Source: a virus | Taxonomy: Duplodnaviria; Caudoviricetes | IMG/VR virus record: IMGVR_UViG_3300018472_000401 | Coordinates: 1-64,000 of that record | Direction: 5' to 3' (one strand) | DNA: 64,000 nt | Part shown: piece by piece, positions 1-62,442 of the stretch | Layout of the letters: every line of letters starts with the position of its first letter | How positions within the stretch are numbered: position 1 is the first letter of the stretch | Program-made: the position numbers and the translations under genes | Notes under the pieces: model-generated | The model's input: only the letters and a program-made list of their open reading frames with translations | Told to the model about the DNA's origin: nothing | The model's database searches: none

Positions 1-1203
1 ATGGCACGAACAAAATTATACCTCGATACAAGGGCGGTTAAGGACGGAAAGCCAGCACCGCTCAAAGTTGCGATAAACAAGAAGTCGGCAACGGCTCTCA
101 TTTCGCTGAATGTCTTTCTGCTCCCGAACCAGTGGGACAAAAAGGCAGGGAAAGTCGTGAACCACCCCAACAGGCTCTTCCTGAATAACTACATTGCCAA
201 GCGGCATATTGACATTGACACGCTCCTCCTTAAATTGATAGAGAGTGGCGAAATAGCCAATATGAGCGCACTTGACATCAAGAACCATATAGTTTACCAG
301 TTGTCCCCCGAAAGGCAGGAGGACGGCAAGGAAAGGCTGTTTACGCACCGTTTCTTGAAGTTTGCGGAAACCAAAAAGGAAAGCACCCGTATTGTGTATA
401 TGAACACGTACAAGCGGATGCACCAGTTCTGCGCTGACCTCGACAAACTCACATTCGAGGACATCACACGGGAATGGCTGACTGCCTACGACACCTATTT
501 GAGCGAAACATCGCCCTCACGGAACGCCCGGAACGTGCATTTCAGGAATATCCGAGCCGTATTCAATGAGGCAATAGACGATGGCGTGACAAAGGCGTAC
601 CCGTTCAGGCGTTTCAAAATTCGCCCGGTCGCCACGATGAAACGCTCATTCTCCGTTAAACAACTCCGGGAACTCTTCAACGCCCCGACAGACGAACATA
701 CGGAAAAGGCTCTCGACATCTTCAAGTTGATTTTCCTGCTTATCGGAATCAACATCATAGACCTGTGCAAGCTGCGTACTATAAACAATGGCAGGGTTGA
801 GTTTTACCGCTCAAAGACCAACCGCCTATACTCTATAAAGGTTGAGCCGGAGGCAATGGAAATCATCAACAAGTACAAGGGGACGGAACACCTGATAGAC
901 ATCCTCGACCAGCACAAGAACCACCGTTCATATACCGGGATATTGAACAAGACACTTAAAGAGGTCGGCACACTGGCGAATGACGAAAGCAGCAAGCCCG
1001 TCTTTCCCCAACTGACGACTTATTGGGCTAGGCACTCGTGGGCGACCATAGCCGCCTCCCTCGAAATACCTAAAGAAACGATTGCGGCTGCGCTGGGGCA
1101 CGGCGGCAATACCGTGACGGACATTTACATTGATTTCGACCGCAAAAAGGTTGATGAAGCCAACAGGCGAGTGATAGATTGGGTGTTATACGGGAAATTA
1201 TAG
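1..1203 (+). CDS. int: Tyrosine recombinase / phage integrase
   Basis: N-terminal arm-binding-like domain, SAM-like core, catalytic motifs RSKT, RHSWAT, LGH and IY near the C-terminus. Confidence 0.95.
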   Translation: MARTKLYLDTRAVKDGKPAPLKVAINKKSATALISLNVFLLPNQWDKKAGKVVNHPNRLFLNNYIAKRHIDIDTLLLKLIESGEIANMSALDIKNHIVYQLSPERQEDGKERLFTHRFLKFAETKKESTRIVYMNTYKRMHQFCADLDKLTFEDITREWLTAYDTYLSETSPSRNARNVHFRNIRAVFNEAIDDGVTKAYPFRRFKIRPVATMKRSFSVKQLRELFNAPTDEHTEKALDIFKLIFLLIGINIIDLCKLRTINNGRVEFYRSKTNRLYSIKVEPEAMEIINKYKGTEHLIDILDQHKNHRSYTGILNKTLKEVGTLANDESSKPVFPQLTTYWARHSWATIAASLEIPKETIAAALGHGGNTVTDIYIDFDRKKVDEANRRVIDWVLYGKL

Positions 1204-30280: not shown

Positions 30281-30502
30281 ATGGAAACTGTATTTGACTA
30301 CAACATCACCCCCGAAGAGTGCCAGTATATCGGCTTGCCCGACAAAGGTTTTTACTTGGAAAACTGCACCAAGGACGATGCCAATATGGATTTGGCTTAC
30401 CTCTTCCATTTACGGAACGAGAGGGAGAAAGCCAGCAGTTACGCTGACAAACTCCCTCTCGAAATGAGAAACGAATTTTGGCGGACGGTCACGCACCCGT
30501 GA
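30281..30502 (+). CDS. Small acidic hypothetical protein, possibly leaderless
   Basis: TAACTTTG at 30269-30276, 4 nt before the ATG; overlaps the 3' end of the MuF gene convergently. Confidence 0.6.
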   Translation: METVFDYNITPEECQYIGLPDKGFYLENCTKDDANMDLAYLFHLRNEREKASSYADKLPLEMRNEFWRTVTHP

Positions 30503-32432
30503 GTATCTTGCCAAACATATCATCAGAATGCCGGAGTGCTTTAATTAGCATTTCGGCTTTTTGTTTCTTTACCCCTTTTCCCACAAGGAACTTCACGATG
30601 CCCTCTGATACGTTCTCGTATGGCTCAACCATTATCAGTTTACTGAAATGTGCGTAAGCCTCCGAACTGGATATGTTCATAGATGCAAGCATTTCATCAA
30701 AATGCCGTACAGACCTGCTATAGCCGTAACCGCTTTTGATGATTTCCTTTTTGTGAGATACGCTGCCGCCAATAGCCCGGAGGAACTTCCCATAGGAGCG
30801 GCGTGCGCAGAACTGGTTTATACACTCCATTGCTGCTGTCAATTCAGGGGTACTCTTGCTCACATCTTTCCAGCCGACAGCCCCTGCGTGGCGTATCTCG
30901 TGCCACAGGCTTTCAATGGCATATTCCTGATTAAATGTCAGAGGCGTTTTCCCGGCAATAGCCCTCATCGCTCCCTTGACCTCGTGGAGAGGGTTAAAAA
31001 CAACCGATTTCCCTTGTGGGTCAATAACATGGTGGTCAGTATTGTATATCTTGATAGTGTTCCCATTCTCTTTGGCATAAGTACCTGTTTTCCTGCTATA
31101 AAAACGCTCGCAACACATCATTGCCCCGTCTTTGGCTTTTGACATCTTCACGGCTTTCAGCCCTCCGTAAAAGTCGCCCGGCTCTGCATCTGCATATTTC
31201 TCAATCATGGTGCGAACCTCTTTTTCAGTGATGAATGTCGGGTCTTTAATCTTGATTATCGCCTCCCTGACATCGGTAATAAGCCCCTTGTTTCCTCCTT
31301 TCGCCATAGAGCCGATGCCGTCCACCCAATCTTTCGGGATATATTTGCCGTTGTCCCTGATGAAGTACGGGACGGAGGTAGTAGTTTTTACACGCTCCCG
31401 GTTGCGTTCAAGCCACGCATTGAAATTCTCCGGCACATCCTTTACCGCCCCCGAAAACTTGTAATTGCTTACATCTTCTCCGGCAAGTATCTTCTGCTGG
31501 TAGTCCAAGAACTCCTCTTCCTTTGCCCGGATAGCGACTGCGGCACACTTGCAAAACGGATGCCAGCCCAGCCAAACAAAGTCTTTCGGATAATCGCCTT
31601 GCAGTTCATCGCAAATGTCATATATCGGGTGGCTGTTGTGGGATATGGAGATACGGATGCCGACAACAAAGGGTATCTGCTTCCACCGCTCGCTGTCTGC
31701 CATACGGTACGCCATGTTGTTTTCCGTAGCGGTAAGCCGGAGGGCGTTCTTGTAACTGGAGCGGTACACGCCCTGTCCAGGGTGGTAGGCTTTCGCTGCC
31801 TTTGACAGACGGAGGACACCGTGCTTGTCCTTGACCCTGCGGAACAACTTGTTTGGCTCATTGAGATACTTGCGGACATCCCTTGAAAGGTCTGCGGCAC
31901 TCTTACCCTCGCCAAGCCCCAAGTCAAGAGCAAGTTCCAGTTCCTCCTTGAACTGCTCCGTGATGTTCCACACCCGGTTGGATAGCATCATCCCGGCTTC
32001 CTTGCGGAGTTGAAAGGCTGATAAAGCCTCCAAATTTGGCTGTTTCCATTGTGAAATTACGTCTTTCGGTAGCCCGGTTGAGGAAGTTATTGCATCAACC
32101 ATAGCATTGTTTTTCTCGCAAGATAAAAGCCATTCCTCACGGTCGCCCGTTTCTATCACTCCTTGCAGCCCACGCCCAACGGAGCGCATGAGGTCGTTTA
32201 TACGCTCCTGCACTGCCGGGTAGTCCGAAAGGTAAAAGGGCTTGTCGGGGTCTTTGAAGCCGGAAGCCTCGCCAATCCGTGCGCCCTCCGTTATGGCAGC
32301 ATCGAACAAGGCATCAATCGCTTTCAGGCGTTTCTTGATGCTGGCGATGTGCTTCTTGTCGAACACCCCGTAACTGAATTTGGTTGCATCTTTCTTTGCC
32401 ATGATTACAGCCTCCTTTTGAATTGTCCGCAT
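30489..32432 (-). CDS. MuF / SPP1 gp7-like minor head protein with C-terminal HExxH extension
   Basis: GWHPFCKC MuF motif; C-terminal WHEIRH...E motif. Confidence 0.8.
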   Translation of the reverse strand: MRTIQKEAVIMAKKDATKFSYGVFDKKHIASIKKRLKAIDALFDAAITEGARIGEASGFKDPDKPFYLSDYPAVQERINDLMRSVGRGLQGVIETGDREEWLLSCEKNNAMVDAITSSTGLPKDVISQWKQPNLEALSAFQLRKEAGMMLSNRVWNITEQFKEELELALDLGLGEGKSAADLSRDVRKYLNEPNKLFRRVKDKHGVLRLSKAAKAYHPGQGVYRSSYKNALRLTATENNMAYRMADSERWKQIPFVVGIRISISHNSHPIYDICDELQGDYPKDFVWLGWHPFCKCAAVAIRAKEEEFLDYQQKILAGEDVSNYKFSGAVKDVPENFNAWLERNRERVKTTTSVPYFIRDNGKYIPKDWVDGIGSMAKGGNKGLITDVREAIIKIKDPTFITEKEVRTMIEKYADAEPGDFYGGLKAVKMSKAKDGAMMCCERFYSRKTGTYAKENGNTIKIYNTDHHVIDPQGKSVVFNPLHEVKGAMRAIAGKTPLTFNQEYAIESLWHEIRHAGAVGWKDVSKSTPELTAAMECINQFCARRSYGKFLRAIGGSVSHKKEIIKSGYGYSRSVRHFDEMLASMNISSSEAYAHFSKLIMVEPYENVSEGIVKFLVGKGVKKQKAEMLIKALRHSDDMFGKILTGA

Positions 32433-33968: not shown

Positions 33969-35579
33969 TTAATAGAGTATATCGTCAATATCTTCATCCC
34001 CGTAATTCGGGAGTGCGTTTACACCAGTCATTTCAACCGCTTTCGGGTGGAACGTGTTAGCCAGTGCATCAAACTCGTCTATGGAGTGTCCCAGCCGCTC
34101 CTTGATGTCTTCTTTCGGCTCGATGATTATCTTGCCATTGGAAAGGAACGACCACTTGATTTCCGTTGCCTCCTCCATGAAGCTGCCGCCCGGTGGGAGC
34201 ATCGCCCCGGTGTTGTTGTCGGGGTTGAGCCAATCCCGGACTGCCCAAAACAGGTACGCCCTCATGTTGGCAAAGGTGTACTGCCCGGTGATGTCCGTTA
34301 GGTCTTTTCCGCTGCTGGTCTTTGCGCCCTCGCTATACTTACAACTGATGATTGTTTCCTCGTCCAGTTTTCCGTTGCTCTCTTGGCATATCTCGACCGC
34401 ACGTGAGTAAACCCCTGCACCCTCTCCAATCGTATCAATAGACACGCTGTAACCGCTGTGTATGGTGATTTCATTCTTGATGCGCCCGGCTACTTTCATG
34501 TGGTCTGCCTTGCCGCCTGAATTGTGCTTGTCGAAACTCTCAACGTAGTTGTCGAAACGCTTACAATACACGGTGCAGTCCCGACCCATACCTGCCACAT
34601 CGACACCGAGAATAGCGTTATTGTGGCTCGTCAGTTTGTAGTGCTTCCAGCGTTCCTGCGCAATCTCTACCCACTTCTGCGGTATCAAGATGTCCTCGTC
34701 CACTTTCGGGAACTCACCGAGAACTTTCTTGCGGAAGAGGTCGGAGGGGCGATACCACTTGCCCTCAAAGCAAAAGTCGTTCTCACTCTCTTTCACTTCC
34801 TCCTCCGTTATCGGCTCGCACCAGTTCTCCACCTTGTCAACGACCCAGTCGTAGTCCACCTGTCCGGGGATGCTGATTTTCTTCTCAACGACATTGGGGG
34901 CTGTCAGGCTGTTCAGGCAGAAACGCTCCCAGCGTGGGGACTTTTGGGAACGGGCGGCATAGCCTACGGTGGTGTTCGGGTTGAATACAAGCAGAAGCCT
35001 CGAATTGCCCTGCAAGTTACCCTCAATAGCCGTGTAGGTATCATCGAGAATACCCGTAGCCTCCGTAACGACAAACATCGTGTTCACGGCATGGAAGCCC
35101 GACCACGCCTCGTGATTGTTCTCGTCAGCCTTAAAGCCCGTCAAGAACCATTCCTCATTGTCTGTGCGGATGTCGTAGGCGTTGAGCCTACCGGGGAGCG
35201 TGAAACCACGCCTCTTTGCACGGTTGAATAGTCTTGAAATTTCAGGCATCATGATGTTTTTTACTTGTCGGTCGGTCGGAGCGGTGAGAGCAACTTTCGT
35301 GTTCTCGACAAGTTCCATTTTGCCGTTGGGATTCTTTTTCCACTTCGGGGTGAGATACAGGAAGCACACAGCGATACAAGCAGCGACAAAATCCTTGCCC
35401 CGTGCCGTACCGCTGCGGACTGATACCAACTTCTTGTGCTGGACGGCTGTAACGATGGCTTGCTGTTCCTCATCCAACGTGACCCCAAGAGCCTCGCTGA
35501 TAAACTTGTTCCAGTCGTTACGCCATTCAGCGAATAGTTTGGCAGCGTTCTTGCGTATCTGTACCTCATTCCTCGCCAT
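33969..35579 (-). CDS. terL: Terminase large subunit
   Basis: SGTARGKDF Walker A, VVTEATG Walker B, GVDVAGMGRD and DEFDAL nuclease motifs. Confidence 0.9.
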   Translation of the reverse strand: MARNEVQIRKNAAKLFAEWRNDWNKFISEALGVTLDEEQQAIVTAVQHKKLVSVRSGTARGKDFVAACIAVCFLYLTPKWKKNPNGKMELVENTKVALTAPTDRQVKNIMMPEISRLFNRAKRRGFTLPGRLNAYDIRTDNEEWFLTGFKADENNHEAWSGFHAVNTMFVVTEATGILDDTYTAIEGNLQGNSRLLLVFNPNTTVGYAARSQKSPRWERFCLNSLTAPNVVEKKISIPGQVDYDWVVDKVENWCEPITEEEVKESENDFCFEGKWYRPSDLFRKKVLGEFPKVDEDILIPQKWVEIAQERWKHYKLTSHNNAILGVDVAGMGRDCTVYCKRFDNYVESFDKHNSGGKADHMKVAGRIKNEITIHSGYSVSIDTIGEGAGVYSRAVEICQESNGKLDEETIISCKYSEGAKTSSGKDLTDITGQYTFANMRAYLFWAVRDWLNPDNNTGAMLPPGGSFMEEATEIKWSFLSNGKIIIEPKEDIKERLGHSIDEFDALANTFHPKAVEMTGVNALPNYGDEDIDDILY

Positions 35580-36132
35580 TTATTGCACTCGTTTCCATAA
35601 GGAGGCTGGCAAATGACAGGTCGCCCGTGACCTCTTTCTTTTCGGGGCTGTAAAGCCCAAGCAACTTGCGCCTCTCCACCAAATTTTTGTGAATGACCTC
35701 CAAATAACGGGGGTCGCCATAGCAAATAACCTCCTCCTTTTGCTGTTCCATTTTCACGGTAACAACACCGCCCTCGCCACTTTCGGCATCACCGCCCGGA
35801 ATACCCTGCTGCTTGGCTTTCTTGCGCTCATAGTCGGTCTTGGATTTCTCCCAAGCCGCCCAAGCCTCCTTAATCACCTCGTCAATGCGTTCCAGTTCCA
35901 GTTGCACGGCAAGGTCGGTGTTGTCAATGCGTGTTTCCCTCCATTCAGCCAGCAAGCGGTTCACGTCCTTGTGAACCGTTTGGAGGCTGTAGGCTTGCAG
36001 GTCTAAACGTGCCATTACTTCCTCCCTGATTTCCCGGTAGGAGTAGCCACGCTTATACAACTGCGCTATGATGTCAAGCCGCACGATTTGCGCCTGACGG
36101 TAATCTTTCATTTTCTTTCCCGGTGCGCCCAT
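35566..36132 (-). CDS. terS: Terminase small subunit
   Basis: N-terminal HTH-like region; overlaps the terL start. Confidence 0.7.
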   Translation of the reverse strand: MGAPGKKMKDYRQAQIVRLDIIAQLYKRGYSYREIREEVMARLDLQAYSLQTVHKDVNRLLAEWRETRIDNTDLAVQLELERIDEVIKEAWAAWEKSKTDYERKKAKQQGIPGGDAESGEGGVVTVKMEQQKEEVICYGDPRYLEVIHKNLVERRKLLGLYSPEKKEVTGDLSFASLLMETSAINGEE

Positions 36133-36135
36133 TGA

Positions 36136-37389
36136 TTAGAATTTTGCTCCGTTGTACTTGTAAACGAGGTTGTCATTCTCGTCCTTGCCGATAGGTGCAA
36201 GTGCGCCCTCGAACAACTTGTAGGGCGACTGCCCTGCTTGTGGGTTGTTCCACAGCCAACGCATATAGTCAGCCATTGTCATACCCTCGAACTTGGCACG
36301 TTTCTCCGATGAATTGCAGTTGTACCCGGTCGCCCTTATCCACTGGAACTGCGACACAAGCCCGTTGATGTCCTTGCAGACATCGTCCCAGCGCACGATG
36401 TGTTCGGGTGAGTTCTTGGCAATCTGCAGAGCCTCGCACCACTGCCCACGTGAGTAGTTCCAGTTGGCAGGAAGCCCACAGCAAGAGCCGTTACAGCACA
36501 ACTCCTTGAAGTGCGCATCGGAAACGTAGAAACGCATACCCAGTTCCTCGCAAAGTTGCTTCATGTTCCGCATAAAAGGCTCTTTGACTTTGCGGTTCAA
36601 TCGGAGATACCCAGTGCTTACGCTGAACTTCTTGTAGAAGTCCATGAAGTCAAAGCCGCACAACTCGTTGAAAGTCGGCATCCATTGTTTCAGGGTCGGG
36701 CTGCGCTGCTCCACGCACATAAATTCCGTACTCATGGCGGTTGCACCACGGTTGGAAGCCTCTCTAATCAAGTCGAGGTATGACGGGGTAGAAATGCCGA
36801 TGATGAACGGACGTAGCCGGAGCGTTGCGCCCCCGGCATCTGCCTCCGCAATCTTGCGGATTGCTTCAAGCCTCTGCATAGGGGTTGGCACACCTCGCTC
36901 AATCACGTGCGCCTTGTGTTCGTCCAGCGTGATGATTGAGAACTTGAAGTTCCAGTTTTTCTGTCCCCGTATGAGTTCCATGTAACGCTCATCCTCCGTG
37001 AACCAGGTAGCCTTGGTTGAGAAGCAGAGAGGGTAGTCAATCTCCTTGAAGAAACGGAGAAGTTCAAGCGTGATGCCGTACTTGCGCTCGAAGCCGTCGA
37101 ACTGGTCGGACAAGCCGCCCCACTGCATAACCTTACGCTGCTTGATGTACTCCTTGAACTGCCCTCCGTACTTGTCGGGGTCGGTGAACATACGCTTGAT
37201 TTTGTCAACCGACACGTGCTTCACGTCTTTGTGCAGATAGTTTTCTTTCGCCCCACCAATCCCTCGCTGGAACTGGGAGAAACAATACATACAGCCAAAT
37301 GAGCAATTCGAGTAGGTGTCGAATGTCATTGGCATAGAGCAATCGGCAATCTCGTTGCTCCATCTTGGACTTTGGTAATAATCAGCCAT
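36136..37389 (-). CDS. Radical SAM enzyme (SplB/spore-photoproduct-lyase-like)
   Basis: CSFGCMYC (CxxxCxxC) motif; extra CCNGSCC cluster near the C-terminus. Confidence 0.85.
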   Translation of the reverse strand: MADYYQSPRWSNEIADCSMPMTFDTYSNCSFGCMYCFSQFQRGIGGAKENYLHKDVKHVSVDKIKRMFTDPDKYGGQFKEYIKQRKVMQWGGLSDQFDGFERKYGITLELLRFFKEIDYPLCFSTKATWFTEDERYMELIRGQKNWNFKFSIITLDEHKAHVIERGVPTPMQRLEAIRKIAEADAGGATLRLRPFIIGISTPSYLDLIREASNRGATAMSTEFMCVEQRSPTLKQWMPTFNELCGFDFMDFYKKFSVSTGYLRLNRKVKEPFMRNMKQLCEELGMRFYVSDAHFKELCCNGSCCGLPANWNYSRGQWCEALQIAKNSPEHIVRWDDVCKDINGLVSQFQWIRATGYNCNSSEKRAKFEGMTMADYMRWLWNNPQAGQSPYKLFEGALAPIGKDENDNLVYKYNGAKF

Positions 37390-37391
37390 AA

Positions 37392-37964
37392 CTATTTGTT
37401 GATAAATTCTAATACTTGTGAAACTAATTCATTCAGAGGCGTTGTCGCTGTGTTCACCTGTAACACCCTTACGCCTATCTCCTGCCACTTCTTTGCGGCT
37501 CTCATACAACGCAACTGCTTATCGAATACCTTTCTCACGCTTTGAGCTGTTCTCTTCCCATTCTTTCCGTTGCTCCTGTTCCCCAGTCGGTTGAAAATGG
37601 TAAGGTTGTCGGCATAAAGCGATATTACATACTGCTGTTCTGCCTTGAATAAAGCGTTCATGAGGTTCATCCCGAAAGTGTCTAAAAAACTACCCTCGCA
37701 GATGATTATATCACGATGCTTCAACCCCTCTTCTACGACTTCCGCAAGGCGTGAAGTACAGGAAGAGCCTTTATCGTTAGTTATTCGGTCAACACCTCCG
37801 TATCTCGTTTCTCCGTATCTTCCTGCAAAGCAGATGATGCCCTCCTTGCAGTATGAAACATCGTTAGTTATTCGGTCAACACCTCCGTATCTCGTTATGA
37901 TAGCCCACGCCAAAGAGGATTTGCCGGAACAATTTGTACCCGTTATGAACACGCACTTTTTCAT
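37392..37964 (-). CDS. P-loop kinase, 5-hmU DNA kinase-like (true start MKKCVF at 37964)
   Basis: GTNCSGKSS P-loop, AGRY...GGVDRI, IICEGS; ATGA-coupled to the upstream gene. Confidence 0.65.
   Translation of the reverse strand: MKKCVFITGTNCSGKSSLAWAIITRYGGVDRITNDVSYCKEGIICFAGRYGETRYGGVDRITNDKGSSCTSRLAEVVEEGLKHRDIIICEGSFLDTFGMNLMNALFKAEQQYVISLYADNLTIFNRLGNRSNGKNGKRTAQSVRKVFDKQLRCMRAAKKWQEIGVRVLQVNTATTPLNELVSQVLEFINK
37773..37896. repeat. Exact 37-nt direct repeat in the kinase gene
   Basis: 37773-37809 is identical to 37860-37896; encodes TRYGGVDRITND twice. Confidence 0.9.
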
Positions 37965-38635
37965 AGCAAACTGACAATGAGGTTTTCCCACTCGCAGCCC
38001 TTGATGTCTTCCAACAGCCTTTCGGTGTAAAAGCCGTTCCAACGTGTCCCCTTGCGAATTTTCTCAACGGCACACAGGCTTGTTTCGAGGGCAAACACGT
38101 TGTCCCCAGTATCACGTTTGGCATCCTCTATGAACTGCGTTAATTTTCCCCGATTTTGCGTTCTCGCAACTATCTCAGCACCCCTTGTATAGTTTTCCTT
38201 TCGCTCGAATTTAAGTGCGAGGTCGTCAATTATTTGCTTTCCGCTGACCTTTGCCCACACTTCGAGAAAGAGGAAAGCAGCGTACCGCCCGAAGAAGTAC
38301 CACGATGTAACGATGTTGTATTGCTCCGTTGTGGTCTGCGCCCGGTCAAGTTGCTCCAGCATACCGGGGTTCAAGTTCTGCATAATACGGTCAAAAGTGT
38401 CACCAATGCGGACATACCTGCGGTCGGTTCTAAACTTTAATTCGCCTTTCGGTGTATTGTGGTTGCGCAGGAGCATCAATGCGCTGGGGATATGGTACGT
38501 TGTAGCGTAGTAATATACAAGCCGGAAGCTGTTCCAGCGTGACAAATGGAAGTGTGCCGAAAGTGAGGCAATCATTTTCTCCTCAACTCCGGCATCGCCT
38601 CCCATGTGGTATTGTATGTACTCTGCGTAATCCAT
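37961..38635 (-). CDS. Amino acid:DNA transferase-like (aGPT-Pplase2/ADDT, HhH-related)
   Basis: FRTDRRY, FFGRYAAFLFLE and ETSLC motifs. Confidence 0.6.
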   Translation of the reverse strand: MDYAEYIQYHMGGDAGVEEKMIASLSAHFHLSRWNSFRLVYYYATTYHIPSALMLLRNHNTPKGELKFRTDRRYVRIGDTFDRIMQNLNPGMLEQLDRAQTTTEQYNIVTSWYFFGRYAAFLFLEVWAKVSGKQIIDDLALKFERKENYTRGAEIVARTQNRGKLTQFIEDAKRDTGDNVFALETSLCAVEKIRKGTRWNGFYTERLLEDIKGCEWENLIVSLL

Positions 38636-38647
38636 AGGGCAAGTACG

Positions 38648-39442
38648 TTATTCTGCACCCTCTATTGAGGGGATAATCTCTTCAAGACGGTACACGACCT
38701 TGTCAATGGACGGCATACCGAGAAGTTGTGCCAACTCCGGCAGACGCTCTTTGGGGTACACGATGATAACACGCTCCATAGCCGTTTCATCCGTTCCCTC
38801 AATCTTAGGCAGGGTGTCCGGGTTAATGTCAACGCCCTGCAATTCCGGGGGCAGCGCATCCTGAAAGGCATCCGCTGGGTTGTCCTCCTCGCTTGCATCA
38901 GGCATAGCCGGGGTAGGTTGTGCCGGGGACGGGGTTGCGCCCATAGGGGTAAAGGCGGTGGGGTTAGCGTTCCACACATCAAGTCCCCAGTCGCCAAGTT
39001 TGGCTTCATCCCACTTGTTGGCAAGGGCATCGAAGTCCCACTGACCGAAACTTGCGTTGTCCTTAATCATGAACTGCTTGCGCTCCGATGCGGATAACTC
39101 ACTGGCGTTGATAACAAGGGCTGTCGGCTTCTCCAGCCATTTTTCCCAGTAATCGACAAGCACCTTGCGCTCGCCATCTGACTTCTCCACAAAGTCGGCT
39201 ATAGTCAAGAGCCTGTTGGAAATATCCCCTGCGCTCATCTTTGCGATTGCTCGCAATGCCTCCGTGCGCATATTACCGCCAAGGGCACACATCTTGTTGT
39301 CCACAACGATTGGGCGCAACTCCAGCATCTTTGGCAGCACAAGGATTGAGTTGATTAGCTTGCCGAATTTCTCTTTGGTGATGGTACGGGGGTTGTCCCC
39401 GTTGAGTTTCACTTGTGAGAGTTTTACCTGTTCTACTTTCAT
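38648..39442 (-). CDS. ParB/Srx N-terminal domain protein
   Basis: NPRTI...RPIVVD...GGNMR motif. Confidence 0.8.
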   Translation of the reverse strand: MKVEQVKLSQVKLNGDNPRTITKEKFGKLINSILVLPKMLELRPIVVDNKMCALGGNMRTEALRAIAKMSAGDISNRLLTIADFVEKSDGERKVLVDYWEKWLEKPTALVINASELSASERKQFMIKDNASFGQWDFDALANKWDEAKLGDWGLDVWNANPTAFTPMGATPSPAQPTPAMPDASEEDNPADAFQDALPPELQGVDINPDTLPKIEGTDETAMERVIIVYPKERLPELAQLLGMPSIDKVVYRLEEIIPSIEGAE

Positions 39443-39473: not shown

Positions 39474-39508
39474 CGCAAAGTTACACAAATATGTTTGTAT
39501 TATAAGCG
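39474..39508 (-). promoter_or_regulatory. Late promoter of the modification-packaging operon with palindromic box C
   Basis: TAACTTTGCG at 39483-39474; CGCTTATAATACAAACA (reverse complement of 39492-39508). Confidence 0.6.
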
Positions 39509-40218: not shown

Positions 40219-41307
40219 TCAGAACACGGAAAATTCGATGCTGTCAATGCGGTTTTTTATCACTTTCATTGCCGTTACGACATTCTGTTCCCGATAGTCA
40301 AATTTACCCTCAACCCCGGCAAAGGCGACCATGCCCGTGTGGAGGTGCTGGGTGAGCGGTGGTACGATGCTTGGAGCAAGGTTGCGGTCGTTCAGTTTCT
40401 CCGCAAGAAGTTTATCCATATCCCGGTTGTGCTGCTTCAACAGGTCGATAAACAGCGTGGAAATAATAGCGTATGTCCGCTGCTCGTCAAAGCCGTACTG
40501 CGGCACTTTCCGCTTCAACTCCTGATTTACGGAGAAATAGAGTATTGTCAAGTCCCGGCTTATCTCGTCCATGCACATTTCGGTCTGCTTGACTACGTTC
40601 TGCAGGTGGTTGTAGTCAAGTTCCCTGCGCAACTCCTCGTTGTACTTCTGATGCACCATTTTCAGTGTCCGGCTCAACTTCTTTAGCAGAGTGACCTTGT
40701 CACGGGCAGCACACGCCATAGCCTTGTCAGCGTACACCCAAGCAAGGTGAGTGATGATGAGCGGAACGAAAGAAACACGCATCTGTTCGTCCAGCGTGAG
40801 CCGTTCCATCATCTTGCGAGTTCTTTCCGAAACATCGTCCCGGAACTTCTTTTCCTGCAACTCTTTAATGTCGGGCATCTTCGGTTGCTGCCGGGGCTTC
40901 TCCGTCTTCGGCTGTGGCAATTCCCCGTCATAGTCCCAAAAGGACAATTTGCCTTTCACGCCCGTAATCGGTTCGGGAAACATGACCGGGTTAACCAGTA
41001 CCCAGTTCCATACTCCTTTTTCTGCCCATAGTGATGGGTGGTTCTGAACACAATCGACAATCTCAACGCTGCCGATGATTGCGCCCTTTGGCAAGTCCTC
41101 GTTGCTTCCGTAGAGTTTATCCTTGTGTCCTGACACCTTATCCAACTGCTCCTTGTTTAGCGCACTCCAGCCCTCCTTCACCGGGGTCTTTGCAGCATGA
41201 ATAAGCACACGTCCCCGGAAGTTGGTTTTCCATGTCCTGTTTTCTATGTTTTTCAGCCCGGACACAATCAGGCTCGCCCACGGCTGTTTAATCGTTATTA
41301 CTTTCAT
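40219..41307 (-). CDS. ASCH-domain protein fused to an uncharacterised C-terminal domain
   Basis: TIKQPWASLI..G.K.IENR, RGRVLIHA and GKLSFW motifs in the first ~135 aa. Confidence 0.8.
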   Translation of the reverse strand: MKVITIKQPWASLIVSGLKNIENRTWKTNFRGRVLIHAAKTPVKEGWSALNKEQLDKVSGHKDKLYGSNEDLPKGAIIGSVEIVDCVQNHPSLWAEKGVWNWVLVNPVMFPEPITGVKGKLSFWDYDGELPQPKTEKPRQQPKMPDIKELQEKKFRDDVSERTRKMMERLTLDEQMRVSFVPLIITHLAWVYADKAMACAARDKVTLLKKLSRTLKMVHQKYNEELRRELDYNHLQNVVKQTEMCMDEISRDLTILYFSVNQELKRKVPQYGFDEQRTYAIISTLFIDLLKQHNRDMDKLLAEKLNDRNLAPSIVPPLTQHLHTGMVAFAGVEGKFDYREQNVVTAMKVIKNRIDSIEFSVF

Positions 41308-41506
41308 GCTTTTCATATTCTTCGATGTCATTGATTTTATCCTTAATCAGTTGATAGAAGTTATCAGCTTCTTTTGCTTTATGCGAAATGTTCCACCTGA
41401 AATAATCAGCAGTCATATATTCGGGGTCTTCCGGCACATGTTCATAAGTAAAAACAGCCCATTTGTCGGCAAATAGTATTCGCCATATAGCGCATAATTT
41501 TCTCAT
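41288..41506 (-). CDS. Hypothetical protein
   Basis: ORF in the early operon. Confidence 0.5.
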   Translation of the reverse strand: MRKLCAIWRILFADKWAVFTYEHVPEDPEYMTADYFRWNISHKAKEADNFYQLIKDKINDIEEYEKHESNND

Positions 41507-41814
41507 TCCATACCTCCTTTCTTCAACTCCGCAATAAGAGCATTAGCACCGCTTACGCTCCATTCTGCCAATGTTCCAATCTTTGCATCCACAAGCATAT
41601 TATGCGGATTAGTAGCGAAGCCTCTCATAAGTTCTTTTGCAATCTCGTACCTGCGCTGCTCCCAGTCAATCTCTGTTTCAAATTCAAGAGCAAACATAGG
41701 AAACTTACGACCGTTCTCTGTTTCGTAGAATGCAAGGCGTACATTGAGGGGTTCACTGCAAGGTCTAACATCTACGACCTCGCCTGTATCTTTAACTCTT
41801 GCTTTCATAATCAC
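41503..41814 (-). CDS. Hypothetical protein
   Basis: IDWEQRRYEIAKE motif typical of Bacteroides phage proteins. Confidence 0.6.
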   Translation of the reverse strand: MIMKARVKDTGEVVDVRPCSEPLNVRLAFYETENGRKFPMFALEFETEIDWEQRRYEIAKELMRGFATNPHNMLVDAKIGTLAEWSVSGANALIAELKKGGME

Positions 41815-42524
41815 TTGTTTTTATGTTCAACACCATACCCAAACAGGGCAAAATCACCTCTTGCCGGGTCATTAGGGAATATCTCACGCATTGCGTTAGT
41901 AATCTCAACAGCCGTTTTCATGTCCGCTTGCTTCCGGCTCGTCAAGCCAAGTTCCAGTGCCATTCTATGCACGTGCGTATCAAGCGGAATTATAAGGCTA
42001 TCAGGGCTGACCTTTCGCCAAATGCCCATATCCACCGGGCTACCCGTCCGAACTATCCACCGCAGGAACATACAGAGCCGCTTGCAGGCAGAGCCCTTGT
42101 CGTAGTCGGGAATACCGTTGATGCCGTTGAAGTAGGCAGAGAGGGCTTGCACGGGCGTTTTATCAGACCAAGCCACTACCATATCCTCCATACGCTCAAA
42201 ATCCTCATACAGCCTGTATAGGCGGTCGCCCAGCCTGTATAAATCATCGTAGGACAGGAAACGGTAAAACTTCCTGTGGTCGTTGTAGTAGAGGTTGTAC
42301 TGCTTCGTCATTAGCCAGCAATAGGGGTCATCGCAAAAGTCCTTATCCAGCCAGTCAGCCGCCTTGATGATTGCCTTGCGGTTTCCAAAGGAGAGCCAAG
42401 AGGTAATGAAACCGCTGATTTCGGCTCGTTTCCCTATGTGCTTCCGGGGGAACTGCACGGGGTCATTGGCTATAAAGCCCTCGACCTCGTATTTGTCAGC
42501 CCATTCTATCAATTTGCGCTTCAT
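41811..42524 (-). CDS. TIGR02757/DUF2400-like (HhH-GPD-related) protein
   Basis: FIANDPVQFP, ACKRLCMFLRW.VR, PLDTHV and DPARGDFALFG motifs. Confidence 0.8.
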   Translation of the reverse strand: MKRKLIEWADKYEVEGFIANDPVQFPRKHIGKRAEISGFITSWLSFGNRKAIIKAADWLDKDFCDDPYCWLMTKQYNLYYNDHRKFYRFLSYDDLYRLGDRLYRLYEDFERMEDMVVAWSDKTPVQALSAYFNGINGIPDYDKGSACKRLCMFLRWIVRTGSPVDMGIWRKVSPDSLIIPLDTHVHRMALELGLTSRKQADMKTAVEITNAMREIFPNDPARGDFALFGYGVEHKNK

Positions 42525-42863: not shown

Positions 42864-43005
42864 CGTCAGCCTCCCTTCCTGTTTCGTGGTGAATTATATC
42901 GGAGAAGTCGCAAGCATCAGCCGGGACATTCCCGAATTTTCCTTTTACACACTCTTCGTAATACTTGCAGTCAGCGCAACTACGTTTTTCTTTTGAATTT
43001 TCCAT
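42850..43005 (-). CDS. 51-aa Cys-containing hypothetical protein (not in the ORF track)
   Basis: MENSKEKRSCADCKYYEEC...; its start overlaps the methylase stop. Confidence 0.5.
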   Translation of the reverse strand: MENSKEKRSCADCKYYEECVKGKFGNVPADACDFSDIIHHETGREADDETD

Positions 43006-44609
43006 TATATTGCCTTTTTAAGTTCGTTCTTGGATAATGTCTTGCAAAGAGCCTCGCAGAGAACTCGTGCCATGTTTACCTCAACCGCATTGCCGATAAA
43101 CTTCTTTTGGTCTGCCTGTGAGCCTACCAGCACGTAATCTTCGGGAAAGCCCATAATCTTTTTCAGTTCGGGTATTTTCAGCATACGCATCTTGATGTCG
43201 ATAATTCCGTAGAGAGCCATAAACTCCTTGATTTTAGCCGTCATCGGGCTATCAGTTGAATAGACTTCAATAAACACCTCGCCCGTTTCCGCTGTAACAA
43301 GATAAGGTGGCATTTTATCCATTCTTGCAATCAGGGTGAAACATGGCTTTTCGACTGAGCCTCCGACATTCTTGTATTGAGGGTTCATCAAGTAGTGGCG
43401 TTTGACCGTTACAAGGTTGAATTTCGGGTTGGTCGTTACAGTATTAGCCGGGACATCCACGGAAGCTGCCGTACCATTCCCGTACTGCATATCAATGAAT
43501 TGTTCTGAACGAATAAGGGCTAACCTGTCTTTCGTTGTAACGGTGGGAGAGGGCATTTCAACGGAATGGTTATTCCCGTTTCCGTAGTATGCCGATATAA
43601 ACGCATGGTGGTCTATGGTCGTGATAGTCCCAGCTGGCTCGTTTACGGAGGTGTTCTTGCTGTCAGGATGTCCGCTGTACTGCTTTGAGAGGAAAGCGAC
43701 CTGTGCGACCCCAAGCCTATTTTGCGTTGCCACCGTAGGACAAGGTTCATCAATACCTGGTGCATTATATTTCCCGGTTCTGCTCATGGAATTGTATTTA
43801 ACAAGAAACGCCTCCTTGCCTCCTGCAATGAATTTTACCAGCCCAGCATATATACGCTCCAGTGTCTTTTCCGACAACGGTTTATCCCTGAATATCGTTT
43901 TGCCCTCGTCTGCGAAGTCAAGAACATCCTTGACGGGCTTCCACTTCGCCAAAGAGCCGAACAGCGTATTTGTCCCGTTCTTGTCGTGGGTCTGACGTGG
44001 GAAGACAATAGGCAAGCCACCCTTTGCGAAGATGCCAAAAAAGCGTTTCCGGCTTGTGTATGCACCATAATCAGCAGCGTTGAGTATGCGGTGGTCAAAC
44101 CTGTAACCGTATGATTTTACTTTGCGCACCCAACGGGTATAACTCTTGCCCTTATCCATAGACACGGGCTTGCCGTTCTCGTCCACCTCACCCCAACTCA
44201 TAAATTCCTCCACGTTCTCAATCTGAATATAGTCCGGGGCTATGGCTTCGATGTATCGGAACAAATGTTCGGCAAGTGTCCGGCTGTCGGCATCCCTTGG
44301 CTGACCTCCCTTTGCTTTCGAGAAGTTGGTACATTCAAGTGAAGCCCACAAGACTACCAGCGCACCGGGATTGTCCTCACGGCACTTTTTCAGATGCTCT
44401 ACAAGTGGGGACAATTCAAGCGTCCTGATGTCCTCCGTGAAGTGCAGCGCATCGGGGTGGTTTGAAGCGTGGGAGGCTATCGCATTTGCATCGTGGTTTA
44501 CGCAAGCAATCACATCAGCGCATTGCTCACCGTTCAATCGTGCGGAATTTACGCCCGTGGAAGTTCCACCAGCACCGCAAAAGAGGTCTATGTATAATAA
44601 CTTTTTCAT
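43005..44609 (-). CDS. C5-cytosine DNA methyltransferase
   Basis: DLFCGAGG (motif I), SLEC (motif IV variant), ENVEEF (VI), RKRFF (VIII), IGNAV (X). Confidence 0.9.
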   Translation of the reverse strand: MKKLLYIDLFCGAGGTSTGVNSARLNGEQCADVIACVNHDANAIASHASNHPDALHFTEDIRTLELSPLVEHLKKCREDNPGALVVLWASLECTNFSKAKGGQPRDADSRTLAEHLFRYIEAIAPDYIQIENVEEFMSWGEVDENGKPVSMDKGKSYTRWVRKVKSYGYRFDHRILNAADYGAYTSRKRFFGIFAKGGLPIVFPRQTHDKNGTNTLFGSLAKWKPVKDVLDFADEGKTIFRDKPLSEKTLERIYAGLVKFIAGGKEAFLVKYNSMSRTGKYNAPGIDEPCPTVATQNRLGVAQVAFLSKQYSGHPDSKNTSVNEPAGTITTIDHHAFISAYYGNGNNHSVEMPSPTVTTKDRLALIRSEQFIDMQYGNGTAASVDVPANTVTTNPKFNLVTVKRHYLMNPQYKNVGGSVEKPCFTLIARMDKMPPYLVTAETGEVFIEVYSTDSPMTAKIKEFMALYGIIDIKMRMLKIPELKKIMGFPEDYVLVGSQADQKKFIGNAVEVNMARVLCEALCKTLSKNELKKAI

Positions 44610-59252: not shown

Positions 59253-59416
59253 ATCACACACGGCTTGCAGAACTTCACACATTCAGGATAACGACTGTAA
59301 TTTGACATATTGGGCTGTTTTCAATAGGAATTGGGAATATGGTAAAAAGAAGGAGTGAAGCGGCTGCCGTCCGGGTTCAAGTCCCGGAGCCGGACTACAA
59401 TCTTAACGAATTAATC

Positions 59417-61510
59417 ATGGAAATGTACGGAAACACATTATGCGTCAGCTTTACGGAACTTGTGGGGAGCGGACTTATCAGTAAGCCCACTTACGACAAG
59501 TATGTACGTAAAGGCAAGCTTACCCTCCTCCAGCGGGGAGGTAACGGACGCGAGGCCCTGATTGCCTACCGCTCCATGCCGGAACGGCTCCGTGCAGCAT
59601 ACGATGACACATTCAAGAATGCATACGAAGAAATGAAACAGCGTGAGCAGGAAAAGTACATCAACACACAGATTCGGTTCGATGCCGAAGCGGTACGGTT
59701 CTTCAAGGAATTTGAGCCGCGTATCGAGCCATCCAGACAGCTGGAATACATCTTGAACGCCCAGGTGATGAACGAGATGGTGCGTACGGAGAAGGCACGC
59801 AGTGTGGAACACGCCAAAGGAGGCTTTGCCCGCCGTGCGGAAACATGGAGCAGTGTGCAGATCTGCTGTGAGCGTCTTCGCGAAATTACAGGTCACACAC
59901 TGCCGAAGAATCCGGCACGATTGCGTGAGAAGTTCAATGCTTACAAGCGTGAGGGATACGTGGTGCTGGTTAGCGGTAACTTGGGCAACAGTGCCGCACG
60001 CCGCATCGGAAAGGCCGAAGGTGCTCTTCTGCTGAAGCTTCGCCGAAGCAAGTTCCCTGTCTACACCGATATGCAGCTCTTTGAGGAATACAACCGTCAG
60101 GCGGTGCTTCGCGGACTGAAAACCATCAAGAGTCCTACTACGATGCACAGTTACTTGAACGATCCGGCGGTAATGGTTTGGTGGTTTTCTGCTGTTCACG
60201 GAGAAAGGGAATTCAAGAACAAGTATATGCCAACCTTCGATACGGTAATGCCGTCCATGCCTAACTCGCTGTGGTATTCAGACGGTACGAAGATAAACCT
60301 TTACTACCGTGCGTACGATGACAGGCAGAAGCGATGGGTGGCACGAACCACGGATGTGTACGAGGTGATGGATGCCTGCACGGAACTGTTCCTCGGCTAC
60401 TTTATCGGTGACGGTGAAAATTTCTTCAACCAGTACATGGCGTACCGGATGGCACTCCAGACATGGAAGGTGAAGCCTTACGAGATAGTTACCGATAACC
60501 AGGGAGGGCATAAGAAACTGGCTTCGCAGGGATTCTTCAAGAAACTCTGCCATCTTCACAAAACCACGATGCCGCACAACGGCCAGTCCAAATCCATCGA
60601 GTCCGCTTTCGGACGATTCCAGCAGCAGGTTCTTCACAAGATGTACAACTTCACCGGTCAGAACATCACGGCCAGGAAGCTTTCAAGCCGCGCGAATATC
60701 GACCTGGTAATGGCAAACATCGACCTTCTTCCCACGCTGGAGGAACTGAAACAGCAGTATGCCGACTGCCGCGAAGAATGGAACTTGATGCAGCATCCTA
60801 CCAGCCTTACCGGCATGACCCGACTGGAAATGTACACCGCCATCGAGAATCCGAAAGCTCAACCGCTGGATGATTACGAAGCACACGAAATCTTCATGCT
60901 GTTCTCTCAGGCTCCGGTGCAATACACCAGGGAAGGTTTCAATTTCCGCATGAACAAGCAGGAATACAGCTACATGGTGTATGGCGACGACGGGCTGATA
61001 GATATGAACTTCCACCTGCAGAACGTAGGCCGTCAGTTCCTCTACCGCTACGATCCGGAAGACATGACCCGCATCGAGCTATGGGCGGTGACTGACACGG
61101 GAGCCAAGTATGCGGCCATCGCTACACCGAAAGTCACGATCCATCGTGCCACTCAGGAACGCACCGAAGAGGAAAACGCTTATCTGTTTGCCCAGCTGGA
61201 TGCCAACCGTCGCACTCGTGCAGCCATGCACATCGCCCAGGAAGACCTTTTCATGGAGGAAGCCATGGGCGAAGCATACACAAAGCTTCGTTTGCCGCGT
61301 CCGGTGGCTGTGAGCGAAAAGCAGCTTGACGGATACCGCGAAGAAATGAAGCGTGGCACACTGGAAGCTCCGGTACCGATGCCCGAAACGGATATTCCGG
61401 AAGAGCCTGTACTGGCAGATGAACCGCTGACCTTCGCATCATCAGGAGACTGGACAAAGAAAGTATCGAACCTGACGTTTGATGAACTGGACAGCTTGGG
61501 AAAATTCTAA
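59417..61510 (+). CDS. MuA-like DDE transposase (likely start MEMYG at 59417)
   Basis: WYSDGT, VMDA, VTDNQGGH and KSIESAF DDE-core motifs. Confidence 0.88.
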   Translation: MEMYGNTLCVSFTELVGSGLISKPTYDKYVRKGKLTLLQRGGNGREALIAYRSMPERLRAAYDDTFKNAYEEMKQREQEKYINTQIRFDAEAVRFFKEFEPRIEPSRQLEYILNAQVMNEMVRTEKARSVEHAKGGFARRAETWSSVQICCERLREITGHTLPKNPARLREKFNAYKREGYVVLVSGNLGNSAARRIGKAEGALLLKLRRSKFPVYTDMQLFEEYNRQAVLRGLKTIKSPTTMHSYLNDPAVMVWWFSAVHGEREFKNKYMPTFDTVMPSMPNSLWYSDGTKINLYYRAYDDRQKRWVARTTDVYEVMDACTELFLGYFIGDGENFFNQYMAYRMALQTWKVKPYEIVTDNQGGHKKLASQGFFKKLCHLHKTTMPHNGQSKSIESAFGRFQQQVLHKMYNFTGQNITARKLSSRANIDLVMANIDLLPTLEELKQQYADCREEWNLMQHPTSLTGMTRLEMYTAIENPKAQPLDDYEAHEIFMLFSQAPVQYTREGFNFRMNKQEYSYMVYGDDGLIDMNFHLQNVGRQFLYRYDPEDMTRIELWAVTDTGAKYAAIATPKVTIHRATQERTEEENAYLFAQLDANRRTRAAMHIAQEDLFMEEAMGEAYTKLRLPRPVAVSEKQLDGYREEMKRGTLEAPVPMPETDIPEEPVLADEPLTFASSGDWTKKVSNLTFDELDSLGKF

Positions 61511-61548
61511 CGATTTGATTAAACAATACTTAAATACCTATTAAAACA

Positions 61549-62442
61549 ATGAAAGGATTAACAACAGAAATGAAAGAACAGGTACGCAGCGCACTGATTG
61601 CCTACCGTTCCAATTACCCTACGTTGAACCGTGCCGCAGAAAGTTTGCAGGGTGTAAGTTCGGCCACCGTGAGCCAGCTTTGCAACGGAAAGTATGAACT
61701 GATCAGTGATGAAATGTTTATCCGTATCGCTTCGCAGATAGGCTTTGCCTTCGACTCATGGAACCTTCACGAAGGAAAGACTTTCAAGGAAATCACTTTT
61801 GCACTGAGTGACGCACAGGCATACAAGAACGTGACATGGATTGTGGGTGATGCCGGATGCGGAAAAACCACAGCAGCCATTGAATACCGCCGTACGCACC
61901 GCAACGTGTTCTACATCCTCTGTTCGGAAGATATGCGACGCTCAGACTTTGTGCGTGAGATAGCCAAACAGGTAGGCGCACCTACCGACACGACCAACCT
62001 CCGCGATATGCTGGAGAATGCCATCAGCATGATTTCTTTCCTGGGAAATCCGTTGCTGGTATTCGATGAAGGCGACAAGCTTACTGACAGCGTGTTCAAC
62101 TACTTCATCAGCATTTACAACCGTCTGGAAGGTCACTCCGGCATCATATTTCTCAGCACAGACTACATCAAACGCCGTATGGAAGCCGGACTTCGCTACA
62201 ACAAAAAAGGTTACAAGGAAATAAACAGCCGCATCGGACGTCGTTTCTTCGATGTATCTCCCACAGAACAGAATGACATCTACGCCATCTGTCAGGCTAA
62301 TAACCTGACCGACCGCGCCGATATAGAAGAGGTGCTGAAGGATGCCAGGCGAAGCGACAACGACCTTCGCCGCGTGAAACGATGCATCCACCGTCAGAAA
62401 CGTATTATCGAAGCAAGAAGGAAAGGAGGAAGCAATGAATAA
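61549..62442 (+). CDS. MuB-like AAA ATPase with N-terminal HTH
   Basis: GDAGCGKT, LLVFDEGD and DLRRV motifs. Confidence 0.88.
   Translation: MKGLTTEMKEQVRSALIAYRSNYPTLNRAAESLQGVSSATVSQLCNGKYELISDEMFIRIASQIGFAFDSWNLHEGKTFKEITFALSDAQAYKNVTWIVGDAGCGKTTAAIEYRRTHRNVFYILCSEDMRRSDFVREIAKQVGAPTDTTNLRDMLENAISMISFLGNPLLVFDEGDKLTDSVFNYFISIYNRLEGHSGIIFLSTDYIKRRMEAGLRYNKKGYKEINSRIGRRFFDVSPTEQNDIYAICQANNLTDRADIEEVLKDARRSDNDLRRVKRCIHRQKRIIEARRKGGSNE

Follow-up and report, generated by a model that had tools for sequence, protein, structure and literature searches.

To our knowledge, all known routes to 5-hydroxymethyl pyrimidines in DNA use either a ThyA homologue together with a dedicated polymerase and pool control, or an O2-dependent TET/JBP dioxygenase. 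Neither of these routes explains thymidine hypermodification by temperate phages whose hosts are strict anaerobes of the gut and rumen, though genes for the downstream kinase, transferase, and glycosyltransferase are present in such phages. Here we describe a four-gene operon from a stretch of 64 kb (the window), which is the first 64 kb of the 90.5-kb IMG/VR provirus record IMGVR_UViG_3300018472_000401. The operon codes for a ParB-like protein, an AADT/ADDT-type transferase, a homologue of the 5-hydroxymethyluracil (5hmU) DNA kinase 5-HMUDK, and a radical SAM enzyme (rSAM) that resembles spore photoproduct lyase (SPL). The reading that we favor, with a probability of about 0.5, is that this operon serves a temperate Bacteroidaceae-type phage as a module for post-replicative hypermodification of thymidine, that it is transcribed with the packaging genes, and that rSAM is its initiating enzyme.

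In the thymidine hypermodification pathway of phages M6, PaMx11, and ViI (Lee et al. 2018, 2021; PMC5889632, PMC8989533), 5hmU is obtained through a dUMP hydroxymethylase and a phage polymerase, which is one of the two known routes to this base (PMC8989533). The sequence-only reading of this DNA had described that pathway as a kinase and a transferase acting on 5hmU made by the hydroxymethylase, but the M6 pathway already includes an SPL-like rSAM, gp53 (PMC8989533), and the competing role that this implies for the window enzyme had not been considered. The other known route is a TET/JBP dioxygenase that acts on DNA (PMC13229309). In the islands of ParB-dependent phage thymine dioxygenases (5mYOX, TET/JBP clade C1; O'Toole et al., PNAS 2026, PMC13229309) this TET/JBP subclass depends on a ParB-like activator and is "consistently linked" to glutamine amidotransferases (GATases), to P-loop kinases, as well as to AADTs, and the same paper names neither radical SAM nor anaerobes. 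In the literature we found no paper that links radical SAM to 5mYOX or to a thymine modification associated with ParB. SPL acts on thymine in DNA via a thymine C5-methylene (allylic) radical.

The operon resembles each of these systems in part. Like the 5mYOX islands it has a small ParB-like protein, a putative activator without a recognisable DNA-binding domain, beside the proposed initiating enzyme; a P-loop kinase and an AADT are linked to it, and a GATase is found in relatives and not in the window; and here, too, the modification is proposed to be post-replicative. Unlike those islands it has no Fe(II)/2-oxoglutarate dioxygenase (PF12851 is absent) and an SPL-like rSAM holds that position and, as proposed here, that role, the C-terminal segment of the ParB-like protein is different, and the hosts found for the rSAM family are all from anoxic habitats. 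As in M6, where the genes are those of gp51 to gp54, a 5-HMUDK homologue, a PUGT-fold AADT, and an SPL-like rSAM are found in one cluster, but M6-type phages are lytic and rely for 5hmdUTP on a dUMP hydroxymethylase that is a ThyA homologue and on a polymerase of their own, all of which are absent here. M6 gp53 is about 20% identical to the window rSAM over the core, it occurs with a ThyA homologue and a pyridoxal-phosphate (PLP) decarboxylase, and it acts after the AADT, whereas the window rSAM family was never found with ThyA or TET and was often found without an AADT. SplB (PDB 4fhc-4fhg) gave the best structural matches to the window rSAM and has the same CX3CX2C core. Unlike SplB, the window enzyme is phage-encoded, has non-sporulating hosts and a ParB partner, is only 17-18% identical to it, carries at its N-terminus an additional conserved segment and at its C-terminus a domain of about 190 aa, and scores far below the SplB-like cut-offs.

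The operon and its products

The four genes are intact open reading frames (ORFs) on the minus strand and lie directly upstream of the terS, terL, and portal genes.

38648-39442, minus strand: ParB-like protein, 264 aa (PHROG matches, family alignment)
37961-38635, minus strand: AADT/ADDT of the aGPT-Pplase2 type, 224 aa, a short form of the family (PF18724, predicted fold, motif)
37392-37964, minus strand: 5-HMUDK homologue, a P-loop kinase of 190 aa from ATG 37964 (hhalign, Walker A)
36136-37389, minus strand: SPL-like radical SAM enzyme, 417 aa (PF04055, NF033668, fold comparison)
35566-36132, minus strand: putative terS, 188 aa (by position, directly before terL)
33969-35579, minus strand: terL, 536 aa (best tblastn match annotated as terminase large subunit, 4e-42, 91% coverage)
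33956-32577, minus strand: portal (phrog_64, 9e-48)

The spacings, computed from the ORF coordinates with the kinase start taken as the inferred ATG at 37964, are 12 nt between the ParB-like gene and the ADDT gene, a 4-nt ATGA overlap between ADDT and kinase, 2 nt between kinase and rSAM, and 3 nt between rSAM and terS, and these values together with the coordinates confirm the claim of the sequence-only reading that the four genes are tightly coupled upstream of terS-terL. The ATG at 37964, which forms the ATGA overlap with the ADDT stop, is likely the true start of the kinase, and the TTG at 38042 merely gives the longest ORF. The terS and terL genes overlap by 14 nt, the putative terS had weak matches to MerR-type helix-turn-helix (HTH) proteins only, and in 68 of 98 related loci a terS homologue was found within 400 nt after rSAM.

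The window ADDT scored 24.7 bits with PF18724 where the gathering cut-off is 26.2, but an exhaustive representative search showed that 22 of its 34 aligned relatives match this family, the best one at 1.4e-20. Its AlphaFold2 model had a pLDDT of 97.4, and the top three Foldseek matches of this model were all PUGT (PaMx11 gp46, 8z2n/8z2m; TMq 0.75, probability 1.00), the next ones being helix-hairpin-helix glycosylases with E > 0.1. PaMx11 gp46 is the all-helical 5-PmdU glycinyltransferase. In the ADDT family E184 is nearly invariant and C188 and K192 are invariant, and the motif ETSLC, which holds E184 and C188, aligns with ETVLC of M6 gp51. In PUGT, E243 and C247 contact DNA (PMC11472151), and from the shared E-x3-C spacing, rather than from an alignment, we infer that E184 and C188 may be their equivalents. 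When the ADDT profile, which is narrow, was compared by hhalign with the single M6 gp51 sequence, the probability was 13% and only the ETxLC motif aligned. Searches of PDB sequences with the single proteins and with the ADDT and rSAM family profiles gave nothing useful; fold comparison alone worked. The predicted function of the window AADT is the transfer of an amino acid to 5-phosphomethyl-dU in DNA.

The kinase family aligned over its full length, 169 columns, with the 5-HMUDKs M6 gp54, ZC01 gp12, and P26218 gp15 (hhalign 99.6%, E 2e-24) and has GTNCSGKS as Walker A. It also matches phrog_800 (1e-11), which is mis-named "terminase small subunit", a wrong database name that 5-HMUDK-type proteins carry. 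Thus, the fold of the transferase, the matches of its relatives to PF18724, and the kinase alignment uphold the earlier assignment of the two middle genes, and they do not belong to unrelated families.

The rSAM matches PF04055 and NF033668 (1e-15) and its CX3CX2C motif is CSFGCMYC (C29, C33, and C36). With the curated SplB-like families it scored 57.4 bits where the cut-off is 360 (NF033668) and 39.1 bits where it is 430 (NF038135), and its best six PDB folds were all spore photoproduct lyase (E 2e-7, identity 17-18%). Its similarity to M6 gp53 is weak: BLASTP gave 7e-4, with 182 aa of the rSAM core aligned at 20% identity, and the rSAM profile, a narrow one, gave a probability of 12% with gp53 in hhalign. 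By tblastn against 50,697 phage records only three weak matches to rSAM were found, all in uncultured faecal phages and none in a cultured phage. Besides the cysteine triad, C17, C225, C303, and C304 are invariant among 143 family members that are 43-100% identical. We considered these four as proof of an auxiliary cluster specific to a hydroxylase and dropped this idea; M6 gp53 and the small second rSAMs described below have comparable extra cysteines and therefore these residues do not discriminate between the readings.

Three kinds of unusual rSAM homologue were seen among the relatives. In an uncultured Clostridium sp. metagenome-assembled genome (MAG; L119:4726-7179) the homologue has 817 aa with an insert of about 340 residues exactly at CX3CX2C (query 5-37 and 36-412 flank it), and this insert looks like an intein, as in NF038136. 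In a Victivallis vadensis MAG (L120:1781-3691) a P-loop kinase domain follows rSAM at the C-terminus of a 636-aa fusion protein, of which residues 450-600 resemble the window kinase (7.5e-4). Two islands (L129:2037-2876 and L134:5969-6820) have a second, small SPL-like rSAM of about 280 aa upstream of ParB, kinase, and AADT, with the main rSAM also in the island; this small protein is 22-24% identical to both M6 gp53 and the window rSAM, and it may be the true tailoring enzyme.

The ParB-like protein matches phrog_620 (1e-13) and the N-terminal ParB part of phrog_498 (4.5e-17). In the family alignment it has an N-terminal domain of the ParB/Srx nucleotide-binding type (NPR, GGNMR), a low-complexity or disordered linker, and a conserved C-terminal segment (LPPELQG...LPKI.G.DET...ER.II.Y), and no HTH DNA-binding domain was recognised in it. 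The model of the ParB-rSAM complex scored 0.67 and the best of three controls 0.00; among solved complexes 58 of 80 came up to this mark of 0.67, and among mismatched pairs 2 of 110, counts that hold roughly as our own alignments were used. The runs agreed in at least 44% of contacts, the pLDDT of the partner was at least 69, and the predicted interface is between ParB residues 189-252, which are the conserved C-terminal segment, and rSAM residues 197-275 and 361-408. As a prediction this model supports a possible binding of ParB to rSAM. The ParB N-domains of rSAM islands and TET/JBP islands are 30-42% identical and only the N-terminal 160 or so residues align; that the ParBs of TET islands share the N-terminal domain only fits a C-terminus that is specific for the partner.

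The missing 5hmU maker and the pattern across relatives

The sequence-only reading had seen no thymidylate-synthase-like, TET, or polymerase gene, and this held when the whole 90.5-kb record was searched in six frames with hidden Markov models: PF00303 (ThyA), PF02511 (ThyX), PF12851 (TET/JBP), PF00476 (PolA), and PF00136 (PolB) were all without a match, and a U32 hydroxylase was not found in this record either. In 50 records with close relatives of rSAM, including 19 that are at least 90% complete, there was no TET/JBP (0/50) and no ThyA (0/50), and as a positive control the same PF12851 search found TET/JBP in 14 of 50 other records that carry AADT. Thus, the window kinase is not encoded with a known source of 5hmU (dUMP hydroxymethylase or TET/JBP), PF00303, PF02511, and PF12851 are without a match in the 50 related records too, and no other conserved candidate for a 5hmU maker was present in the rSAM phages.

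With rSAM as query 80 viral loci and 38 genome loci were retrieved. All 38 genome loci were MAGs from gut, rumen, or other anoxic habitats, and their taxa were Bacteroidales, Clostridia, Victivallales, Verrucomicrobia, Spirochaetaceae, and Thermotogota. Across the 80 viral loci rSAM was 68-100% identical, while the identity of portal and terS fell to 28-67%. The 98 related loci belong to anaerobes of gut and rumen and have ParB upstream of rSAM, with genes in between that vary as follows.

ADDT, kinase, and GNAT: 40 of 98 loci
ADDT and kinase, as in the window: 15 of 98 loci
TAGT, cytidylyltransferase, and a 355-aa protein: 10 of 98 loci
GNAT alone: 7 of 98 loci
TAGT (TET-associated glycosyltransferase, PF20691, up to 78 bits) alone: 7 of 98 loci
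kinase alone: 7 of 98 loci
forms with GATase: 5 of 98 loci
other or none: 7 of 98 loci (ADDT and GNAT 4; ADDT, kinase, and TAGT 1; nothing recognised 2)

ParB and rSAM are therefore the fixed core and the enzymes that would use the handle are interchangeable. These cassette enzymes are the ones that accompany TET/JBP in the islands of ParB-dependent thymine dioxygenases (PMC13229309, PMC8989533). The cassette that combines the 355-aa protein, which is of no known family, with a TAGT-like glycosyltransferase and a cytidylyltransferase-like protein (PF01467) was seen, for example, at L039:5735-8008 and L030:5023-7983, and its composition suggests synthesis of a nucleotide-activated sugar or alcohol that is then joined to the same handle.

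In an independent test AADT-bearing viral records were collected by AADT patterns alone and 50 whole records were searched for the three sources. The rSAM was found in 19, a ThyA homologue in 16, and TET/JBP in 14, the one record with none being a 25%-complete fragment, and no record had more than one source. All 22 near-complete AADT records had exactly one source out of rSAM, ThyA, and TET. Among 143 AADT loci 95 had rSAM, 22 TET, and 17 ThyA, again with no overlap, and the nine loci with none were short. A maximum-likelihood tree of the AADTs (77 rows) has five changes of the source label, at least three of them being forced by well-supported branches; rSAM-linked and TET-linked AADTs interleave in it and one rSAM clade is nested among TET-linked AADTs. 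TET islands have the gene order ParB-TET-GATase-AADT, and their GATase and AADT share 33-47% identity with the counterparts in rSAM islands. The simplest reading of these sequence relationships would be that an O2-dependent and an O2-independent initiating enzyme were exchanged for one another as modules. In 11 of the 19 near-complete rSAM phages no AADT was found anywhere, which implies that the rSAM family is not simply the M6 gp53 isomerase.

Proposed pathway and competing explanations

The gene identities, the operon structure, the absence of the known 5hmU makers, and the comparative pattern are what we observed, and the pathway proposed here is built on them. We suggest ParB-partnered thymidine hypermodification of the known general kind with a new candidate initiating enzyme. 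In a first step the ParB-like protein would hold rSAM on phage DNA via its conserved C-terminal segment, in parallel with the ParB activation of 5mYOX thymine dioxygenases. In the second step a flipped-out thymine would lose a hydrogen of its C5-methyl group to the 5'-deoxyadenosyl radical from rSAM, giving the same allylic thymine radical as SPL handles, and one-electron oxidation and capture of water would then yield 5-hydroxymethyl-dU, or an equivalent activated handle, without O2. The 5-HMUDK homologue would phosphorylate this handle in the third step, and in the fourth the AADT would swap the phosphate for an amino acid to give N-alpha-aminoacyl-thymidine (GlyT-type) or an O-seryl-type base, and the modified base would shield the packaged DNA from host nucleases. 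The chemistry of the second step, the identity of the amino acid, and the timing are what we infer.

The reading that rSAM initiates the pathway is the best supported one because rSAM is exclusive of ThyA and TET, the ParB-rSAM core is conserved, rSAM is independent of AADT, and a ParB-rSAM interface is predicted. Its more specific form, in which rSAM tethered by the ParB C-terminal segment is an O2-independent thymine C5-methyl hydroxylase on finished double-stranded DNA that takes its oxygen from water and supplies 5hmU as the anaerobic analogue of TET/JBP, is put forward tentatively, as a proposal that could well turn out otherwise. The sequence-only reading had suggested that rSAM activates the methyl group of thymine, or of 5-methylcytosine (5mC), after replication; the thymine half of this has become the best-supported reading through comparative genomics, and the 5mC half appears unlikely, a C5-methyltransferase being present in 7 of the 50 related records. 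It had also raised the possibility of a new base, for which nothing speaks. From the AADT and kinase alone the final base here is expected to be an amino-acid-thymidine conjugate of known type.

If rSAM does initiate the pathway, it would give the first case of an unmodified DNA base being functionalised by a radical SAM enzyme, and it would be an O2-free counterpart of TET/JBP, which would be of interest as an epigenetic tool. It would also mean that modified genomes form a large class in gut viromes that has stayed hidden, which bears on restriction and CRISPR evasion and on sequencing bias.

Several points weigh against this reading. Hydroxylation with water needs an electron acceptor. The four extra cysteines of rSAM could bind a second cluster and yet they are not diagnostic of a hydroxylase. 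A position beside the kinase, or fusion to it, is also seen or expected for a tailoring rSAM, as in the M6 gene order. The three source classes follow AADT clades, so that the independent events are few (3-5). Viral records may be incomplete, so a host-encoded or unrecognised maker of 5hmU is possible, and the TET/JBP Pfam model misses some phage 5mYOXs (PMC13229309). M6 gp53, the sole relative to have been characterised, works after the AADT as a tailoring isomerase, and every step of the proposed pathway was drawn from comparative genomics.

This last relative leads to the explanation that competes best, which is that rSAM is a tailoring enzyme. In this view it would remodel the appended group late in the pathway, as an isomerase of the gp53 kind or as a different radical enzyme, and the handle would be supplied by the host or by a phage gene that escaped recognition. 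The AADT product of M6 is isomerised by gp53, itself an SPL-like rSAM, and rSAM genes in such clusters were taken as tailoring genes in a 2021 NAR survey (PMC8989533 for both); the window rSAM aligns with gp53 over the radical SAM core and in M6, too, the rSAM gene adjoins the kinase gene. The distribution of the family fits poorly with this role. It is present in 11 of 19 near-complete phages without any AADT and in minimal islands made up of ParB, one enzyme, and rSAM, and it was never found with ThyA or TET, neither in the 30 records that have one of these nor in the 50 close relatives, whereas M6 gp53 does co-occur with a ThyA homologue. A gp52-like PLP partner was not found in 78 loci, some islands hold a separate small gp53-like rSAM besides the main one, and no other conserved candidate is present that could make the handle. 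The context of a gp53-type enzyme, namely, an AADT product, a PLP decarboxylase, and a 5hmU maker, is thus not that of the window rSAM family, and we consider a tailoring role for it rather unlikely.

A second explanation is that the pathway starts at 5mC made by the C5-methyltransferase of the prophage (44609-43005), that rSAM activates 5mC, and that the kinase and transferase decorate a cytosine derivative. The C5-methyltransferase gene, with a large insert, is located 3.6 kb upstream (PF00145, 3.6e-30) with ASCH and DUF2400 genes between it and the operon, and the phage enzyme 5mYOX176 oxidises both T and 5mC (PMC13229309). But a C5-methyltransferase was found in only 7 of the 50 rSAM-bearing records and in 1 of the 19 near-complete ones, AADT and 5-HMUDK have been characterised only on 5hmU, and in the T-specific class of ParB-dependent dioxygenases the same cassette partners are found (GATase, P-loop kinase, and AADT), which makes a start at 5mC improbable.

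The most improbable explanation is that the four genes do not modify bases at all and act instead in packaging or partition (ParB), in the salvage of nucleotides (kinase), and in repair of DNA (SPL-like lyase) at a pre-terminase site that merely tolerates insertions, for although the rSAM fold is nearest to a repair enzyme and the Pfam score of the window ADDT is just under the cut-off, the match of the AADT fold to PUGT is specific, the kinase is a full-length 5-HMUDK homologue (99.6%), each of the interchangeable TAGT, GATase, GNAT, and AADT is an enzyme of DNA hypermodification, translation of the genes is coupled, and a spore photoproduct would be unexpected in hosts that are non-sporulating gut anaerobes.

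Prophage context and neighbouring genes

Two further features border the operon on its upstream side.

40080-39526, minus strand: RusA-like resolvase, upstream neighbour of the ParB-like gene
39476-39483, minus strand: Bacteroides-type -7 box TAACTTTG, a consensus match 33 nt 5' of the ParB ATG

By its match to the consensus TAACTTTG is a candidate promoter before ParB, and the single late promoter of the sequence-only reading is retained in part, as a putative promoter with a putative late class. Prophage 1 spans from a tyrosine integrase (1-1203, plus strand) to a CI/S24 repressor (58120-57455, minus strand), and these two genes support a temperate lifestyle, in agreement with the earlier description of a prophage. 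The nearest homologues bear Bacteroidaceae names and the operon stretch was found in animal-gut metagenomes from many studies. Blastn of the operon against the 50,697 phage records gave no match. Contigs from RNA libraries of two studies span the whole operon and bridge the gene junctions; as these are assembled contigs and carry-over of DNA is possible, they were not counted as proof of transcription.

Upstream of the operon there are three genes that are kept only in the nearest relatives. The first codes for an ASCH-domain fusion protein of 370 aa (40219-41331, minus strand), the C-terminal 210 or so residues of which had no match, and an ESM Atlas search with this C-terminus gave no usable match; ASCH domains are proposed readers of modified bases. 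The second codes for a DUF2400 protein (41811-42524, minus strand; 1e-61), which was considered as a distant relative of AADT and dropped at a probability of 0.7%. The third is the C5-cytosine methyltransferase gene (43005-44609, minus strand), whose insert of about 270 aa lies between conserved blocks.

Elsewhere in prophage 1, a MuF-like head protein of 647 aa (30489-32432, minus strand) matched a PHROG named "Bxa ADP-ribosyl transferase" (1.6e-81, residues 212-366) and has about 270 additional C-terminal residues. A reverse transcriptase gene (PF00078; 3934-5361, minus strand) adjoins the gene of a 2212-aa tail-region protein (5782-12420, minus strand), which suggests a diversity-generating retroelement in the prophage. 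Beside the CI repressor a second mobile element begins at about 59.3 kb (59339-62442, plus strand) with a 723-aa protein without a family match followed by a MuB-like AAA+ protein (PF13401, PF09077), and this arrangement suggests a Mu-like transposable prophage.

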